The notes beneath the pieces were generated by a model. The model was not told where the DNA came from. It did no database searches and worked only from the letters and a program-made list of their open reading frames with translations. A stretch of 64,000 nt of DNA from Escherichia coli (GTDB lineage Bacteria; Pseudomonadota; Gammaproteobacteria; Enterobacterales; Enterobacteriaceae): assembly GCF_003334255.1 (NCBI RefSeq), contig NZ_QOWU01000002.1. One strand, 5' to 3'. Each line of letters starts with the position of its first letter. The stretch's first letter is position 1. Positions 5,370 through 55,414 of this stretch are shown here, piece after piece. The position numbers and the translations under genes are program-made.

Positions 5370-5831
5370 GTCTGTATTTCCTTATCCAAAGTATGGAGAA
5401 GTTAACATTATGTTTCACAACTTCATAGTGTCTGGAAGTATTATTTTTATGACAAAGGAAATACTTTGCGCAAATATTTTTTGTTTGATTACCAGCGAAA
5501 CGTTTCTCTTATTTAAATAATTACCCACACAAAATATAGGCTTTTAATTATCAACCTTTATTATAAATAAAAGTTATGAAATATATTCTCTTCGTTAACT
5601 TATAATTAAGAGAAAAAAACTCACCGCATGGCCATTTAAGCCAGGAATAAATTAGCTTCCCGTTCATCATTTTTGTGATCTTGCGCACATCTTTGAGATA
5701 ACGCACTTTCTTCACCAGTACGTTGCACGCTTTGTCAGCAGAAGATTGCAACAATCTTTCAGAAGGCCGCGAATCCCCCGTTTTGTCGTGGTAATGTATG
5801 CACTTTGTGTTAGACGGGATAGGTTTTTAAG

Positions 5832-6926
5832 ATGGAAAAACTGCGGGTAGGAATCGTTTTTGGTGGTAAATCAGCGGAACATGAAGTGTCTCTGCAATCG
5901 GCAAAAAACATTGTCGATGCCATTGATAAAAGTCGCTTCGACGTTGTGCTGCTGGGCATTGATAAACAAGGGCAATGGCACGTCAGCGATGCCAGCAATT
6001 ATCTGCTAAATGCAGACGATCCTGCCCATATTGCGTTGCGCCCTTCGGCGACCAGCCTTGCGCAGGTGCCAGGTAAACATGAGCATCAGCTTATCGACGC
6101 GCAAAACGGTCAGCCGTTGCCGACGGTGGATGTCATTTTCCCGATTGTCCACGGTACGCTGGGCGAAGATGGTTCCTTGCAGGGAATGCTGCGGGTCGCC
6201 AATTTACCGTTTGTAGGTTCTGATGTTCTGGCTTCAGCAGCCTGTATGGACAAAGATGTCACCAAACGTCTGCTACGCGATGCCGGGCTGAACATTGCGC
6301 CATTTATTACCCTGACGCGCGCCAATCGTCACAACATTAGTTTTGCCGAAGTGGAGTCTAAACTGGGGTTACCACTGTTTGTAAAACCGGCTAATCAGGG
6401 CTCTTCTGTTGGTGTCAGCAAAGTAACCAGTGAAGAACAGTACGCAATTGCCGTCGATCTGGCGTTCGAGTTCGATCATAAAGTGATCGTTGAGCAAGGG
6501 ATCAAAGGTCGTGAGATCGAATGCGCAGTTCTGGGCAACGACAATCCGCAAGCCAGCACCTGTGGAGAGATCGTACTCACCAGCGATTTCTATGCCTACG
6601 ACACCAAGTACATTGACGAAGATGGCGCGAAAGTGGTAGTTCCGGCAGCCATTGCGCCAGAAATCAACGATAAGATCCGGGCGATTGCCGTTCAGGCTTA
6701 TCAAACGTTGGGATGCGCAGGCATGGCGCGTGTAGACGTGTTTTTAACCCCAGAGAACGAAGTGGTGATCAACGAGATCAACACCCTGCCTGGCTTCACT
6801 AATATCAGTATGTATCCGAAGCTGTGGCAAGCCAGCGGTCTGGGTTACACCGATCTGATCACACGTTTGATTGAACTGGCGCTGGAGCGTCACGCTGCGG
6901 ATAACGCATTGAAAACCACAATGTAA
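5832..6926 (+). CDS. ddlA: D-alanine--D-alanine ligase A
   Basis: 364 aa, [29 protein letters not shown]-grasp fold. Confidence 0.95.
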
Positions 6927-45260: not shown

Positions 45261-46160
45261 ATGCTCTCTCGACATATCAATTATTTTCTTGCCGTGGCTG
45301 AACATGGCAGCTTCACCCGTGCCGCCAGTGCGTTGCACGTCTCCCAACCTGCGCTTTCCCAGCAGATTCGCCAGTTAGAGGAGAGTTTAGGCGTGCCGCT
45401 GTTTGACCGTAGCGGGCGAACGATTCGTCTCACTGATGCAGGAGAAGTCTGGCGACAGTACGCCAGCCGGGCGTTACAGGAACTGGGGGCGGGTAAACGG
45501 GCGATTCATGATGTTGCCGATCTGACGCGAGGATCGCTGCGTATCGCCGTCACCCCCACCTTTACGAGCTACTTTATCGGCCCCTTAATGGCGGATTTCT
45601 ATGCGCGCTATCCCAGCATCACGCTCCAGCTACAGGAAATGTCGCAGGAGAAAATCGAGGATATGCTTTGCCGCGACGAGTTGGACGTTGGGATTGCCTT
45701 CGCGCCTGTGCATTCGCCGGAGCTGGAGGCAATTCCTTTACTGACAGAAAGTTTAGCGTTAGTCGTGGCGCAACATCATCCGCTGGCCGTCCATGAACAG
45801 GTGGCGTTGAGTCGCTTGCATGATGAAAAACTGGTCCTGCTCAGCGCGGAATTTGCCACCAGAGAGCAAATTGACCACTACTGCGAGAAAGCGGGGCTAC
45901 ATCCACAGGTGGTCATTGAGGCGAACTCAATTAGCGCGGTTCTGGAGCTGATTCGCCGCACTTCCCTTTCCACATTGTTACCAGCAGCGATTGCCACACA
46001 ACATGACGGGCTTAAAGCTATTTCTCTTGCCCCGCCACTACTGGAGAGAACGGCGGTTTTGTTGCGGCGGAAAAATAGCTGGCAGACAGCCGCCGCGAAG
46101 GCATTTTTGCACATGGCGTTGGATAAATGCGCGGTTGTTGGCGGAAATGAATCACGGTAG
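45261..46160 (+). CDS. cynR: LysR-family regulator of the cyn operon
   Basis: [44 protein letters not shown]..., 299 aa, divergent from cynT. Confidence 0.9.
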
Positions 46161-46476
46161 CCGCTGACACAGGTCTGCGGCTGGAATTGCCTGATGCGCT
46201 ACGCTTATCAGGCCTACGAGTTCAGTGCTCTACGTAGGCCGGATAAGGCGTTCACGCCGCATCCGGCATAAACTACAGCTGGCAGACAGCCGCTGCGAAG
46301 GCATTTTTGCACATGGCGTTGGAGGAATGCGCGGTTGTTGGCGGGAATGAATCACGGTAGCCGCTGACACAGATCAGCGGCTGGAATTGCCTGATGCGCT
46401 ACGCTTATCAGGCCTACGAGTTCAGTGCTCTACGTAGGCCGGATAAGGCGTTCACGCCGCATCCGGCATAAACTAA
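46077..46476. repeat. tandem direct duplication, 2 x 200 bp (cynR 3' end plus REP pair)
   Basis: agctggcagacagccgc...atccggcataaacta occurs at 46077-46276 and again at 46277-46476 with a handful of substitutions. Confidence 0.85.
46277..46360 (+). pseudogene. duplicated cynR 3'-terminal fragment
   Basis: Second copy of the last ~84 bp of cynR including the ...gaatgaatcacggtag terminus, no upstream ORF. Confidence 0.5.
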
Positions 46477-46496
46477 GCTCGCTGTAACCCAGTCGT

Positions 46497-49181: not shown

Positions 49182-49350
49182 GTAGGCCTGATAAGACGCG
49201 TCAGCGTCGCATCAGGCATCTGAGCATGGTGTCGGATGCGACGCGAGCGCCTTATCCGACCTACGGTTCAGGTCCGTAGGCATGATAAAACGCGTCAGCG
49301 TCGCATCAGGCATCGGCACACAGTGCCGGATGCACCGCGCGACGCATCCG
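49182..49350. repeat. REP/BIME cluster between codB and prpE
   Basis: Alternating gtaggcctgataagacgcg... and ...cggatgcgacgcgagcgccttatccgacctac units. Confidence 0.8.
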
Positions 49351-49358
49351 ACAATAAC

Positions 49359-51245
49359 CTACTCTTCCATCGCCTGGCGGATCTGATCCAACGACGCAGG
49401 ATCATCAATGGTCGTCAGATCTCCAGGATCGCGTCCTTCGCAAATCGCCTGGATCGTGCGGCGCAGCATTTTTCCGGATCGCGTTTTTGGCAATTGCGAG
49501 ACAAACCAGACGTGCGCCGGGCGGCCAAAGTTGCCAATCTGGCTGTCCACCAGCGCCATAATCGCCTTCTCTTGCGAGTGCGCCACATCACGATCTTCCA
49601 GACTGTCGCTCTCTTTCGGAATGACAAACGCCACCGCCACCTGCCCTTTCAGCGCATCTTTCACCCCAACCACCGCCACTTCGGCAACGCCCGGATGGCT
49701 GGAGATACTCTCTTCAATCTCGCGCGTCCCCAGCCGATGCCCGGCAACGTTAATTACATCGTCAGTGCGCCCGAGAATAAAGTGATAACCGTCAGCGTCA
49801 CGGATGCCCCAGTCAAAGGTGGCGTACACCGGGCGGGAAAACAGCGACCAGTAAGTCTTCACAAAGCGGCCGTCGTCGCCCCAGATGGTCTGAATACACC
49901 CCGGCGGCAGCGGCCCTTCCACCACCAGCATCCCTTTCTCGTTGACGCCACACGGTTCGCCGGTGACTTCATTAAGCAACTGCACGTTATAGCCATACAT
50001 CGGCACACCGGGGCTTCCCAGACGCGTCGGCCTGTCGTCCAGACCGCGAGCAATCGCCATAATCGGCCAGCCGGATTCGGTCTGCCAGTAGTTGTCGATG
50101 ACCGGCACATCCAGCGTATTGCTCACCCAACTGGCGGTCGGCTCGTCCAGCGGTTCTCCAGCCAGATAGAGCACTTCCAGCGACGAGAGATCGTGTTTGC
50201 GAATTTCAGCGGTAGGGAATTTTTTCAGCACGCGAATGGCGGTCGGCGCTGAGAACATCCGGCTAACCTGATATTTCTCGACGATTTTCCACCACACGCC
50301 GCAGTCCGGCCAGGTCGGCAATCCTTCGTAAACGATAGTCGCCATCCCCGCCAGCAGCGGCGCGTAAACGATATACGAATGCCCCACCACCCAGCCGATA
50401 TCCGATGCGCAAAAGAACACGCTGCCCGCTTTGCCGCCAAAAATGGTGTCCATCGAGGTCGCCAGCGCCACCGCATATCCGCCGACGTCACGCTGCACGC
50501 CTTTAGGTTTGCCGGTCGTGCCGGAAGTGTAGAGAATGCAGGAGGTTTCGTTGGATTCCAGCCACGCCACCGGTACCCGCGCGCCGATGTGTTGATGGCG
50601 CAACGACGCGAAATCGACATCCCGCCCGCTGACGCGCGCCATTTTCGCCAGCCCGCGATCCACCAGCAAAACATGGCGTGGCTGGTGCTGCGCCTGACTT
50701 ATCGCATCGTCGAGCAATTTTTTATAGGGAATGATTTTGCCACCGCGCGCTCCGGCATCAGCCGAGACAATCAGCACCGGTTTAGCGTCATCAATTCGCG
50801 CCGCCACGCTGTGCGAGGCAAATCCACCAAACACCACCGAGTGAATAGCGCCAATGCGCGCGCAGGCCAGCAGAGTAATATGCGCTTCGGCAATCATCGG
50901 CATATACACCAGCACCCGATCGCCGCGCTGCACACCCAATGAACGCAACATTGAGGCCACCGCGTTCACTTCGTCATGCAGCTGACGAAAGGTAAAGGTG
51001 CGCTCTTCTTCTGTTTCCGAAGAGACGGCAATCAGCGCCAGCGCCTCTGGCTGTTTCTCCAGCCAGCGGTCGATGGCGTTGTGGCACAAGTTGGTTCGGC
51101 CTTCACAAAACCAACGGGCAAACGGCGGATTGCTGTGATCGAGCGTTTGCGTAAAGGGCGTCTGCCAGTCAATACGCCGGGCCTGCTCGGCCCAGAACTG
51201 CTCCGGTTCGTTAATCGAACGCTGATAAAATTCGCTAAAAGACAT
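49359..51245 (-). CDS. prpE: propionate--CoA ligase
   Basis: 628 aa MSFSEFYQRSINEPEQFWAEQARRIDW... acyl-CoA synthetase. Confidence 0.95.
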   Translation of the reverse strand: MSFSEFYQRSINEPEQFWAEQARRIDWQTPFTQTLDHSNPPFARWFCEGRTNLCHNAIDRWLEKQPEALALIAVSSETEEERTFTFRQLHDEVNAVASMLRSLGVQRGDRVLVYMPMIAEAHITLLACARIGAIHSVVFGGFASHSVAARIDDAKPVLIVSADAGARGGKIIPYKKLLDDAISQAQHQPRHVLLVDRGLAKMARVSGRDVDFASLRHQHIGARVPVAWLESNETSCILYTSGTTGKPKGVQRDVGGYAVALATSMDTIFGGKAGSVFFCASDIGWVVGHSYIVYAPLLAGMATIVYEGLPTWPDCGVWWKIVEKYQVSRMFSAPTAIRVLKKFPTAEIRKHDLSSLEVLYLAGEPLDEPTASWVSNTLDVPVIDNYWQTESGWPIMAIARGLDDRPTRLGSPGVPMYGYNVQLLNEVTGEPCGVNEKGMLVVEGPLPPGCIQTIWGDDGRFVKTYWSLFSRPVYATFDWGIRDADGYHFILGRTDDVINVAGHRLGTREIEESISSHPGVAEVAVVGVKDALKGQVAVAFVIPKESDSLEDRDVAHSQEKAIMALVDSQIGNFGRPAHVWFVSQLPKTRSGKMLRRTIQAICEGRDPGDLTTIDDPASLDQIRQAMEE

Positions 51246-51284: not shown

Positions 51285-52736
51285 TTAAATGACGTACAGG
51301 TCGAGATACTCATTGACCGGCATCTGTTCCAGGCGAGCTCTGTCGAGAGAAACCTCCAGAATGCGCTGCTGTTGGCGAGTCGGGAACTGGCGCGCGAGAT
51401 TGATTTTGAATTTATCGACCAGTTTCGGAATACCATCCTGACGGCGGCGAGCATGACCAATGGGGTACTCCACCACCACTTCTTCAAATCGTGTGCCGTC
51501 GGTGAACTCAAGGGTAATGGCATTGGCGATGGCGCGTTTTTCCGGGTCGTGGTAGTCAGCGGTAAATGCCGGATCTTCAAAGCAATTGATCTTCTCGCGC
51601 AGGGCGTCAATGCGTTTATCTTGCGCAACGTTGTCCTCGTAATCTGCCGCCGTTAAGCGCCCGAATAGCAGCGGGATCGCCACCATGTACTGAATGCAGT
51701 GATCGCGGTCTGCCGGGTTATTGAGCGGCCCTTTTTTGTCGATGATGCGAATACAGGCTTCGTGGGTGCGAATGGTCACTTTTTCGATATCCGCCGCCGT
51801 TTTGCCTGCTGCCTGCATCTGTTCATAGAGCGTCATCGCTGCTTCAACTGCCGTCTGGGAGTGGAACTCCGCCGGGAAGGAGATTTTGAACAGCACATTT
51901 TCCATAACGTAGGAACCGTACGGGCGCTGGAAGCGGAACGATTCACCTTTAAAGGAGACGTCGTAGAAGCCCCACACCGGCGCAGTCAGGGCTGACGGGT
52001 AACCCATTTCGCCCGTTTTCGCCATCAGTGCCAGACGTACCGCGCGGGAAGTGGCATCGCCCGCCGCCCAGGATTTACGCGTGCCGGTGTTCGGCGCATG
52101 GCGATAGGTGCGCAGCGACTGACCGTCCACCCACGCCAGCGAAACGGCGTTGAGAATTTCCTCGCGGGTCAGGCCGAGCATTTCGGCGACCACGGCGGTG
52201 GAAGCCACTTTCACTAACAGAACGTGGTCGAGGCCGACGCGGTTAAAGGAGTTTTCCAGCGCGATGCAGCCCTGAATTTCATGGGCTTTGATCATTGCGG
52301 TCAGCACCTGTTTCATGGTCAACGGCGCTTTGCCGCTGGCGACCGCGTTGCGCGAAAGCCAGTCCGCCGTTGCCAGAATGCCGCCGAGGTTGTCGGAAGG
52401 ATGGCCCCACTCCGCCGCCAGCCAGGTATCGTTGAAATCGAGCCAGCGGATCATCGCGCCGATGTTAAATGCCGCCTGGACGGGGTCGAGCTGGAACTGA
52501 GTTCCGGGGACGCGCACGCCGTTGGGTACGACGGTGCCGGGAACAATTGGCCCCAGCAGTTTTTTACAGGCCGGGTATTCGAGAGCTTCCAGACCGCAGC
52601 CGAGCGTGTCGAGCAGGCAGTAATGTGCGGTGTCGTAGGCCACTTTAGAGCTGATTTCGTAGTTCATGACGTAATCGACGATATCAACGATTTCACGATC
52701 AAATTCCGGGCGGATGTTGTTGATTTGAGCTGACAT
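51285..52736 (-). CDS. prpD: 2-methylcitrate dehydratase
   Basis: 483 aa [31 protein letters not shown]... Confidence 0.95.
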
Positions 52737-52769: not shown

Positions 52770-53939
52770 TTACTGGCGCTTATCCAGCGCGACAAACGGG
52801 CGGTCTTCCGGTCCAACATAATTGGCGGAAGGACGGATAATTTTGTTGTCCTGACGTTGTTCGATAATGTGCGCCGCCCAGCCGGTGACGCGGGCGATAA
52901 CAAACAGTGGTGTGAACATCTCGGTGGGAACGCCCATCATGTTGTAGGAAACAGCAGAGAACCAGTCGAGATTGGGGAACATCTTTTTGCTCTCCCACAT
53001 CACCGTTTCCAGGCGATCGGCGATGTTGTACATCTTCAGCGAGCCGCCTTCCTGCGAGAGCTGCTTCGCCACACGTTTAATCACCTGGTGGCGCGGGTCA
53101 GCGATGGTGTAAACCGGATGACCAAAACCAATGACCACTTCTTTGTTTTCCACGCGCTTGCGGATATCTGCTTCGGCTTCGTCCGGCGTTTCGTAGCGTT
53201 GCTGGATCTCCAGCGACACTTCATTCGCCCCGCCGTGTTTTGGCCCGCGCAGTGCGCCAATCGCGCCAATAATCGCGGAATACATATCAGAGCCGGTGCC
53301 CGCAATCACCCGACTGGTAAAGGTGGAGGCGTTAAACTCGTGTTCGGCGTACAGCACCAGCGAGATATGCATCGCCTTTTCCCAGCTTTGCGATGGCTTT
53401 TCGCCGTGCAGCAGATGCAGGAAGTGACCGCCGATGGAGTCGTCATCGGTTTCCGGTTGGATGCGTTCGCCGTTGTGGCTGTAGTGATACCAATAAAGGA
53501 GAATCGAGCTAAGCGACGCCAGCAGTTTGTCGGCAATATCCCGCGCGCCAGAGACGGTATGCCCCTCTTTTTCTGGCAGCGTGCAGCCGAGCGCGGAAAC
53601 ACCGGTGCGCATAACATCCATCGGGTGCGACGCCGCCGGTAAGGCTTCCAGCACGGTACGCACGTTAGCCGGTAAACCGCGCAGGGCTTTCAGTTTCGTT
53701 TTGTAAGCGGCGAGTTCGTCACGGGTCGGCAGTTTGCCGTGGATCAGCAGATGCGCCACTTCTTCAAATTCGCAATGTTTCGCCAGATCAAGAATATCGT
53801 AGCCGCGGTAATGCAGGTCATTGCCACTTTTACCCACGGTGCAGAGCGCCGTATTGCCCGCCGGAACGCCAGAAAGTGCCACAGATTTTTTCGGTTTAAT
53901 GACATGGGTACTGTTTTGCAGGATCGTTGTGTCGCTCAT
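52770..53939 (-). CDS. prpC: 2-methylcitrate synthase
   Basis: 389 aa citrate-synthase family. Confidence 0.95.
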
Positions 53940-53974
53940 GTTGTCCTCGTCATTGTTATCATTTGTAGGGTCGA

Positions 53975-54262
53975 GATTGTTGTCGGATGCGACGCTATGC
54001 GTCTTATCCGACCTACAGTTCAGTTCACCCCGTAGGCCTGATAAGTCGCGTCAGCGGCGCATCAGGCATCGGTTGTCGGATGCGACGCTATGCGTCTTAT
54101 CCGACCTACAGTTCAGTGCACCCCGTAGGCCTGATAAGTCACGTCAGCGGCGCATCAGGCATCGGTTGTCGGATGCGACGCCATCCGTCTTATCCGACCT
54201 ACAGTTCAGTGCACCTCGTAGGCCTGATAAGTCGCGTCAGCGACGCATCAGGCATCGGCTGT
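53975..54262. repeat. tandem REP/BIME array, 3 units of about 93 bp, inside the prpBCDE operon
   Basis: gtcggatgcgacgctatgcgtcttatccgacctacagttcag...gtaggcctgataagtcgcgtcagcggcgcatcaggcatcggtt repeated with starts at 53982, 54075, 54168. Confidence 0.85.
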
Positions 54263-54285
54263 CGAATACAATCAACGGGCGTTTT

Positions 54286-55176
54286 TTATTTCACCTGGCT
54301 ACGGGCAAACAGGTTGTCGAGCTTCTCTTCGTACTGGTAGTAGTTGATGCTTTCGTACAGCTCGTTGCGGGTCTGCATGGTGTCGATGACGCTTTTCTGC
54401 GTGCCTTCCTGGCGCAGGACGTTGTAGACATGTTCAGCGGCGCGGTTCATGGCGCGGAACGCTGAAAGTGGGTACAGCGCCATTGCGACATGGGCGCTGC
54501 GTAATTCGTCGGTGGTAAACAGCGGCGTGGCACCAAATTCGGTGATGTTGGCGAGGATCGGCACCTGCACCGCATCGGCAAACTGGCGGTACATGGCGAG
54601 TTCGGTAATCGCCTCCGGGAACAACATCTCGGCACCCGCTTCAACATAGGCCTGCGCACGCTCGATCGCCGCATCCAGCCCCTCTACCGCCAGAGCATCG
54701 GTGCGCGCCATGATCACAAAATCAGGATCGGTTTTCGCATCCACCGCCGCGCGGATCCGATCCACCATCTCTTCTTTCGAGACGATCGCTTTATTCGGAC
54801 GATGACCGCAGCGTTTCGCACCAACCTGATCTTCAATATGCAATCCTGCCGCACCGGCTTTAATCATCGATTTCACGGTGCGCGCCACGTTAAAGGCCGA
54901 AGAACCAAAACCGATATCCGCATCCACCAGCAGCGGCAGCGAACAAACGTCGGTGATACGGCGAATGTCGGTCAGCACATCATCAAGGGTAGAAATACCG
55001 AGATCGGGCAGCCCCAGCGAACCTGCCGCCACGCCACCGCCAGAAAGATAAATTGCCTGATATCCGGCACGCTGCGCCAACAGCGCATGATTAGCGTTGA
55101 TGGTGCCAACAATCTGCAATGGATTTTCTTTAGTCAGTGCAGCGCGAAACGCTTTACCTGGAGAGTGTAGAGACAT
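54286..55176 (-). CDS. prpB: 2-methylisocitrate lyase
   Basis: 296 aa [48 protein letters not shown]... Confidence 0.95.
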
Positions 55177-55222
55177 AGCCCATCCTTTGTTATCAACTTG
55201 TTATTTGCGTTGATAAAGACAA

Positions 55223-55238
55223 AGCAAGGGGTGTGCCA
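55223..55238 (-). promoter_or_regulatory. sigma-54 (-24/-12) promoter of prpBCDE
   Basis: Minus-strand TGGCAC-ACCCC-TTGCT matching TGGCAC-N5-TTGCW, upstream of prpB and divergent from the sigma-54 activator gene prpR. Confidence 0.6.
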
Positions 55239-55414
55239 CAATTGCCTTAATAAAATTAAATGTTTAATTTCAATTTGTTAGAGATAAAGTCATGAACTAA
55301 TCCGCAAATATGCGTTTCAGTTAACGTTTCAGGCAATGTTTCACCGCGTTTCATTGCAACAATTATGAAACAAGACTAAACCCAATATTCGGTTTCTTAA
55401 CTTTGCGGTGCGCT

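Follow-up and report, generated by a model that had tools for sequence, protein, structure and literature searches.

REP25, a three-unit BIME-2-type array in the prpB-prpC gap of the Escherichia coli prpBCDE operon, and its possible effect on the prp mRNA

Palindromic repeats that lie between the first and second cistrons of an operon raise the question of what, if anything, they do to the message that carries them. We examined such a case in a 64-kb stretch of E. coli DNA, the whole of which is called the window below. The element is REP25 in MG1655 numbering, a BIME-2-type array of three y/z2 REP pairs in the untranslated gap between prpB and prpC. In our preferred reading, to which we give a probability of roughly 0.6, the array is transcribed within the prpBCDE mRNA and would stall 3'-to-5' decay, so that the prpB segment outlives prpCDE.

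The prpB-prpC gap of the window measures 346 bp, and the array lies wholly inside it (extragenic). Tandem Repeats Finder (TRF) places the array at 53979-54264 with a period of 93, 3.1 copies, 95% matches, no indels and a score of 523. A repeat search finds three in-register copies of the 93-bp unit (53979-54081, 54072-54174 and 54165-54267; 93-98% identity to the reference copy), and the three units agree pairwise at 84-88 of 93 positions. The preliminary description of this DNA had reported three tandem units of about 93 bp between the first and second cistrons at 53975-54262. Both searches recover these units, and the earlier coordinates fall within 4 bp of those of TRF. Three points have to be added to that account: the operon is on the minus strand, each unit consists of two inverted REPs (six in all), and next to prpB there is a stub of about 16 nt from a fourth unit (54254-54269). 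The genes around the array, all identified as ORFs with NCBIfam scores far above the equivalog cut-offs, and the promoter element found by motif match are as follows.

54286-55176, minus strand: prpB, 2-methylisocitrate lyase, first cistron; its TAA stop is 32 nt before the first REP
52770-53939, minus strand: prpC, 2-methylcitrate synthase, second cistron
51285-52736, minus strand: prpD
49359-51245, minus strand: prpE
55403-57001, plus strand: prpR, divergent
55223-55238, minus strand: sigma-54 -24/-12 promoter element of prpBCDE, TGGCACACCCCTTGCT, upstream of prpB

The element TGGCACACCCCTTGCT, read from 55238 to 55223, is the only match to the sigma-54 consensus with one mismatch in the whole 64 kb, in keeping with the earlier view of a sigma-54-driven operon. 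Neither a sigma-70-like promoter nor, on either strand, an intrinsic terminator (a GC-rich hairpin with a U tract) was found in 53500-55500, and the array should therefore be transcribed from the sigma-54 promoter. prpBCDE is described as polycistronic in PMC7360682, which cites Simonte 2017 for it. The stretch from the sigma-54 element to the prpB start codon contains an exact match to the IHF consensus, TATCAACTTGTTA (55191-55203, plus strand); this match may be due to chance, there being 9 such matches in the window against 3.9 expected.

The features of the array itself are listed below. REPs were identified by pattern match, and the energies are those of the single REPs folded as RNA.

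53979-54267, minus strand: BIME-2-like REP array, REP25 in MG1655 numbering; 3.1 tandem units of 93 bp in prp mRNA sense (TRF, repeat search and preprint supplement)
54254-54269, minus strand: left-over part of an additional unit toward prpB, with linker-like ATCGGCT and then GTCGAATAC (read from the sequence; TRF 3.1 copies)
54218-54253, minus strand: z2-type REP of unit 1, GCCTGATGCG...TTATCAGGCCTAC; -21.4 kcal/mol
54168-54202, plus strand: y-type REP of unit 1, GTCGGATGCG...TTATCCGACCTAC on the plus strand and GTAG... in the mRNA; -16.3 kcal/mol
54125-54160, minus strand: z2-type REP of unit 2; -14.4 kcal/mol
54075-54109, plus strand: y-type REP of unit 2; -17.8 kcal/mol
54032-54067, minus strand: z2-type REP of unit 3; -16.3 kcal/mol
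53982-54016, plus strand: y-type REP of unit 3; -17.8 kcal/mol; its end is 42 nt before the prpC ATG
54035-54106, minus strand: head-to-head REP pair matching Rfam naRNA4 (RF02564); 63.1 bits against a gathering score of 59.5

A REP is an imperfect palindrome of about 35 nt with GTAG/CTAC at its foot and a stem mismatch. The six pattern matches in the array alternate in orientation at a period of 93 bp, each ends in CCTAC, and each folds with an internal mismatch or loop; there are six because each 93-bp unit is made of one y-type and one z2-type REP in inverse orientation. REPs also occur in many copies across the 64-kb window, with 19 pattern matches in total. In mRNA sense, every unit runs from a z2 REP (36 nt, GCCTGATGCG...CTTATCAGGCCTAC) through a tail-to-tail linker (15 nt, GGGGTGCACTGAACT) to a y REP (35 nt, GTAGGTCGGATAAG...GCATCCGAC) and a head-to-head linker (7 nt, AACCGAT). 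The GTCGAATAC of the remnant on the prpB side resembles the first 9 nt of the y REP. The y REPs of the array are of the form GTCGGATG...CATCCGAC, compared with GCCGGATG...CATCCGGC in the canonical y REPs elsewhere in the window; both sides of one stem pair are changed and the pairing is kept.

This arrangement is that of the BIME-2 family as set out in PMC3333891, with inverse y and z2 REPs, short linkers and tandem copies that vary between strains and are alike within a locus. Here the plus strand carries y REPs of the GTCGGATG type, interleaved with 36-nt z2 REPs of the GCCTGATG type on the minus strand, and the units, which resemble one another, number 3.1 in the window, 4.1 in MG1655 and 0 to 5 among E. 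coli. For the BIME family (Gilson, Bachellier and Hofnung), copy-number variation and RayT-catalysed strand exchange are documented (PMC3333891). The inner stem of the REP25 y REP resembles that of z2 (GACGC/GCGTC), and under a strict classification the element may count as 'atypical'. A BIME-1/RIP element, which is a single y and z1 pair with a long L linker holding an IHF site, was considered and rejected, the REPs here being z2 and the linkers 7 and 15 nt; the IHF consensus WATCARNNNNTTR has no match within 53940-54285. Only the REP pair at 54035-54106 passes the naRNA4 gathering score, the other two scoring 57.7 bits (54128-54199) and 35.1 bits (54221-54293), both below 59.5. The match reflects a REP pair of like shape and is not evidence of HU binding. 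Together, the REP pattern matches, the Rfam match, the flanking genes and the promoter element confirm the preliminary identification of a REP/BIME array inside a sigma-54-driven prpBCDE operon.

The window contains further repeats of this kind. Directly after prpE are the REP pairs of REP26 (49182-49264 and 49279-49353), the former being the best naRNA4 match in the region at 71.6 bits; the prp mRNA accordingly has REPs both behind its first cistron and at its 3' end. An array at 63743-64000, cut by the end of the window, has a 93-bp period and at least 2.8 copies, in which a short z1-like REP (GCCTGATGCGCTACGCTTATCAGGCCTAC) alternates with canonical y REPs; it is a tandem z1/y array and not a single BIME-1 pair. 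At 46077-46479, a 200-bp unit is present 2.0 times with 96% identity and carries one canonical y REP per copy (46234 and 46434).

Two open reading frames run across REP25 on the strand opposite to the operon:

53821-54465, plus strand: spurious 214-aa ORF, antisense to the prpC start, the array and the prpB end
53987-54340, plus strand: spurious 117-aa ORF, antisense to the array and overlapping the 3' end of prpB

ORFs of such lengths do exist on the plus strand, and the probability that they encode real proteins is nevertheless close to nil. A unit of 93 bp holds exactly 31 codons; a frame without a stop in one unit therefore runs on through all of them, and both translations repeat every 31 residues. 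An NCBIfam search of the two returned nothing significant (the best E-values, 0.0015 and 0.34, correspond to 17 and 10 bits, far short of the curated cut-offs). The gap is without an annotated CDS in MG1655 and in the eight other genomes inspected, and the ORFs cannot exist in the 39% of genomes that have no array (see below). The judgement that these ORFs are artefacts of the repeat, made before any search, is well supported by the 31-aa periodicity, the antisense overlap of prpB and prpC, the lack of a family match and the lack of an annotated CDS. The locus tags of MG1655 skip b0332 between prpB (b0331) and prpC (b0333), from which we infer that an ORF was once called in the gap and later withdrawn. 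The name yahH, considered for the skipped tag, is ruled out, as yahH is b0322.

As RNA, the gap is highly structured. The predicted folding energy is -14.4 to -21.4 kcal/mol for single REPs and -152 kcal/mol for the entire gap, shuffles of which give -113 +/- 6 (z = -6.7). The ribosome-binding site of prpC, GAGGA at 53944-53948, is predicted to be essentially unpaired; the one pairing seen is a weak 4-bp helix in the minimum-energy structure, which the centroid lacks. The sense RNA has a C/G ratio of 0.97, C exceeds G by at least 10% in 0% of its 78-nt windows, and its unpaired linkers are G-rich (GGGGTGCACTGAACT) and not C-rich.

By analogy with REP325, which is described next, we propose that the six stable hairpins would act in the mRNA as a barrier to the 3'-to-5' exonucleases PNPase and RNase II. 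Decay begun downstream would stall in the array, and the prpB segment would outlast prpCDE. Clearing the structured fragments left behind would require RNase R, or PNPase with RhlB and poly(A) polymerase (background in PMC10100675). Read-through into prpC may also be reduced modestly. PrpB would end up in excess of PrpCDE, to a degree set by the unit number. As DNA, the array would grow and shrink when near-identical units recombine or slip, or by the action of the REP-associated transposase RayT; this would explain the 0 to 5 units seen among strains.

The closest parallel is REP325, the naRNA locus between yjdM and yjdN in E. coli K-12. It too is a tandem z2/y array between the first and second genes of an operon, and along the mRNA its elements follow one another in the same order and direction (a z2 REP ending in CTAC, a tail-to-tail linker, a y REP starting with GTAG and a head-to-head linker). 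REP25 likewise separates two genes of one operon that point the same way, and its y and z2 REPs have that orientation to the transcript. The hairpin stabilities are comparable, and Rfam naRNA4, which is built on the REP325 REP pair, matches REP25 pairs. The two differ in detail. REP325 has 5.8 units of 100 bp, while REP25 has units of 93 bp, three here and four in MG1655; the linkers of REP325 are 17 and 13 nt and those of REP25 are 15 and 7 nt and unrelated in sequence; and REP25 has y REPs of the GTCGGATG...CATCCGAC form. C is enriched in the sense RNA of REP325 (C/G of 1.29, with C over G by at least 10% in 41% of 78-nt windows), which has AAATTCCCGCACCCTCC linkers, whereas the sense RNA of REP25 lacks this C-rich, G-poor character. 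Finally, REP325 has been characterized by deletion, Northern blot and bicyclomycin treatment, and REP25 is known here from sequence. When REP325 was deleted, the mRNA of yjdM, upstream, fell about 3-fold and that of yjdN, downstream, rose about 10-fold (bioRxiv 10.64898/2026.03.23.713779). The same preprint emphasizes that REP effects are strongly context-dependent and that mRNA half-lives are not generally extended by terminal REPs.

A further precedent is the REP stabilizer between malE and malF. It has two to three hairpins, compared with six in REP25. As related in PMC12306157 and the REP325 preprint, the malE-malF element (Newbury et al. 1987) also places REP hairpins between an upstream, more highly expressed cistron and the cistrons downstream; it and other intra-operon REPs have likewise been proposed as 3'-to-5' exonuclease barriers. 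Stabilization of the upstream segment and uncoupling of the first cistron from the others, as the preliminary description suggested, is the standard REP role. The deletion of REP325 has now demonstrated it for a structurally equivalent array, and for prpB and prpCDE it would fit the indirect published hints.

REP25 is already catalogued, and earlier publications cover its repeats, how these differ among strains and a possible RNase R connection. The supplement of the REP325 preprint (bioRxiv 10.64898/2026.03.23.713779) lists REP25 at MG1655 349606-349970 as 'Tandem', with prpB upstream and prpC downstream, next to REP24 between prpR and yahO and REP26 after prpE. This entry belongs to a table of Rho-binding peaks, the one place in the supplement that lists REP25, and the main text makes no mention of prp. 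"Repeats between prpB and prpC" have been discussed in two papers. RT-qPCR on one isolate showed a stronger induction of prpB than of the prp genes behind it, and RNase R was implicated at prp (PMC7360682); the comparison of ZvL2 with MG1655 in that study is confounded by a prpR promoter change. Simonte et al. (2017, Mol Microbiol 103:55), as summarized in PMC5371410 and PMC10240344, found that the prp transcript is degraded by RNase R and that an rnr mutant gains anaerobic growth on propionate. A full-text literature search on the prp operon with REP or tandem-repeat wording returned nothing relevant.

The number of units differs widely among strains, a comparison that the preliminary description had named as a check. 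Units were counted with a flank-only query, the span of each match giving the array length, and records were sampled in even steps down a ranking of 5,223. Two samples of 59 records each (118 pooled) gave the following counts:

0 units: 24 in sample 1, 24 in sample 2; 48/118 pooled
1 unit: 16 in sample 1, 16 in sample 2; 32/118 pooled (about 27%)
2 units: 1 in sample 1, 0 in sample 2; 1/118 pooled
3 units: 3 in sample 1, 3 in sample 2; 6/118 pooled (about 5%)
4 units: 13 in sample 1, 15 in sample 2; 28/118 pooled
5 units: 2 in sample 1, 1 in sample 2; 3/118 pooled

In agreement with the samples, an allele-specific junction query found the array-free allele in 2,053 of 5,214 E. coli genomes (39%). 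With no array, prpB and prpC are 44 bp apart (AACACAACGAAAAATATCTCGACCCTACAAATGACGAGGACAAC). One and four units are the commonest occupied states, and the three-unit allele of the window is in the minority. O157:H7 and ST131 have one-unit alleles, and BL21 derivatives and ST69 have five-unit alleles. Four of the five ST69 units read GCGGCTTATC where K-12 reads GCGACTTATC; such private variants common to the units of one array point to local amplification or homogenization. As 39% of genomes are array-free and about 27% have a single unit, the operon works without the array.

The window is colinear with MG1655 339,858-381,259 by BLAST, and over 25 kb it is 100% identical to E. coli K-12 substr. 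GM4792. The MG1655 array has four units (5595-5973 of the locus record) in a gap of 439 bp, so that the window is without one internal unit. Dozens of independent complete genomes carry the identical three-unit allele, as do the K-12 derivatives GM4792, MG1655-pvir and OV2; with four units in MG1655, this implies either 4-to-3 changes in laboratory lineages or assembly differences. A second BIME-2-like array, REP31 between mhpE and mhpT (28788-29029; MG1655 about 374,931-375,366; period 101), has 2.4 copies here versus 4.4 in MG1655. That both arrays are shorter than in MG1655 may reflect either real instability and deletion or the collapse of repeats in the source assembly, which is K-12 GM4792-like. 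In E. coli SCU-171 (NZ_CP054363.1), only the 5'-proximal part of prpB matches and adjoins a cytosine permease gene; the array and prpCDE appear to have been lost there by deletion.

Repeats occupy the same gap in related genera. We scanned one genome per species with PrpB and measured and read the prpB-prpC gaps of the resulting 80 loci. E. albertii has the same array with the same flanks (about 3.5 units in a gap of 405 bp), and a cryptic Escherichia lineage has one unit, again with the same flanks. Gaps of 80-125 bp in Citrobacter species and of 93-111 bp in Salmonella enterica subsp. arizonae and diarizonae hold one REP or a head-to-head REP pair, which begins 0 to about 10 nt past the prpB stop; this distance is inside the range in which REPs reportedly stall terminating ribosomes, and that mechanism could apply there. 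The Kluyvera gap holds half a REP. No REPs were found in the short gaps (about 0-65 bp) of Pseudocitrobacter, Shimwellia, Photorhabdus, Xenorhabdus, Providencia and Janthinobacterium. Two Morganella psychrotolerans loci have an unrelated long imperfect hairpin (136-187 bp) in the gap instead of a REP, an independent occupation of the gap by a different palindromic element. Conservation of the prpC leader ACCCTACA..ATGATAA.AATGACGAGGACAAC (53940-53975 of the window, minus strand) extends from Escherichia to Salmonella and Kluyvera. In E. coli alleles with no array, 9 nt of this leader are missing (TAACAATGA), and array loss and the 9-nt deletion travel together. Since part of a conserved leader is missing and the outgroups carry the array, the array-free allele is probably a derived deletion rather than the ancestral state.

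Several other explanations have to be weighed against a barrier to mRNA decay. The array could be a selfish or neutral repeat that follows its own dynamics (RayT, slippage) in a tolerant gap, with no selected effect on prp expression, and we hold this main rival to be plausible, if less probable than the decay barrier. It would readily accommodate the 39% of genomes without an array and the range of 0 to 5 units, the mhpE-mhpT array that is also off its MG1655 count (2.4 versus 4.4 copies), the frequency of REPs in the window (19 in 64 kb) and the known variation of BIME number per locus between strains (PMC3333891). However, REPs have occupied this gap since before the split of Escherichia, Citrobacter and Salmonella, or have re-occupied it repeatedly; the array-free allele looks derived, being without 9 nt of the conserved prpC leader; and the structurally equivalent REP325 has strong measured effects on its own operon. 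Those effects include termination, which at REP325 is partial, bicyclomycin-sensitive in part and confined to the full array (bioRxiv 10.64898/2026.03.23.713779). REP25 might likewise be a partial Rho-dependent terminator whose main effect is attenuated transcription into prpCDE across a long untranslated structured gap. We consider this unlikely, even though the 346-nt untranslated gap uncouples translation from transcription and no intrinsic terminator was found in 53500-55500. The sense RNA has no region with C>G, its unpaired linkers are G-rich (GGGGTGCACTGAACT), and in the in vitro screen of the preprint the only Rho-binding peak at REP25 among the rows listed is antisense. With an RNA that is not C-rich and an antisense peak only, the Rho-dependent component is expected to be weak, and strong Rho-dependent attenuation at REP25 is less likely. 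Strong termination would also be counter-productive, because prpC, prpD and prpE are all needed for the pathway. The antisense peak, an in vitro Rho-binding (rut) peak with NusG, is listed in the supplement at MG1655 349,966-350,088 on the minus strand. It corresponds to about 53865-53985 on the plus strand of the window, antisense to the prpC 5' end and touching the edge of REP25, and it could terminate antisense transcripts entering the array.

More doubtful still is a role at the DNA level, with the array serving either as a BIME-2 site where gyrase binds and cleaves, and so controls supercoiling in or near a strongly inducible operon, or as a nucleoid-organizing naRNA/HU site. BIME-2 elements are enriched for in vivo gyrase cleavage sites, mainly at y-type REPs, but gyrase binds only some of these elements, and the main text of that study does not name prp in this group (PMC6379681). 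A gyrase role would accordingly be nothing particular to this locus. Similarly, Rfam naRNA4 does match REP pairs of the array, but the HU-naRNA4 model of nucleoid compaction was not supported for REP325 itself (bioRxiv 10.64898/2026.03.23.713779). Either role would also have to do without the site in 39% of strains. Control of prpB translation, in which a REP near the stop codon stalls terminating ribosomes and leads to tmRNA tagging (Liang, Rudd and Deutscher 2015), is very improbable in the window. In the summary of that work in PMC12306157, a REP no more than 15 nt from a stop reduces translation of the gene before it, and the REPs of Citrobacter and Salmonella start close enough to the prpB stop; in the window, however, the first REP is 32 nt past it, beyond the 15-nt limit.

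As an annotated REP element, REP25 is of modest significance. What is added here is the population picture, in which 39% of 5,214 genomes are array-free, and the contrast with REP325 in a sense RNA without a C-rich stretch. Since natural alleles with 0, 1, 3, 4 and 5 units exist, as in JS316, ST131, the window, MG1655 and BL21 respectively, the locus offers a convenient dose series for relating REP number to the ratio of cistron expression. It is also conceivable, if improbable, that the number of units (0 to 5) is a heritable and quickly mutable dial for the PrpB:PrpCDE ratio, with expansions and losses that are adaptive and not neutral. In that case, the array would set how far 2-methylcitrate, a toxic intermediate and the co-activator of PrpR, builds up, how long growth on propionate is delayed, and the anaerobic, RNase R-dependent shut-off of the pathway, and both the expansions to four or five units in particular lineages (K-12, BL21 and ST69) and the losses in 39% of genomes would be adaptive.
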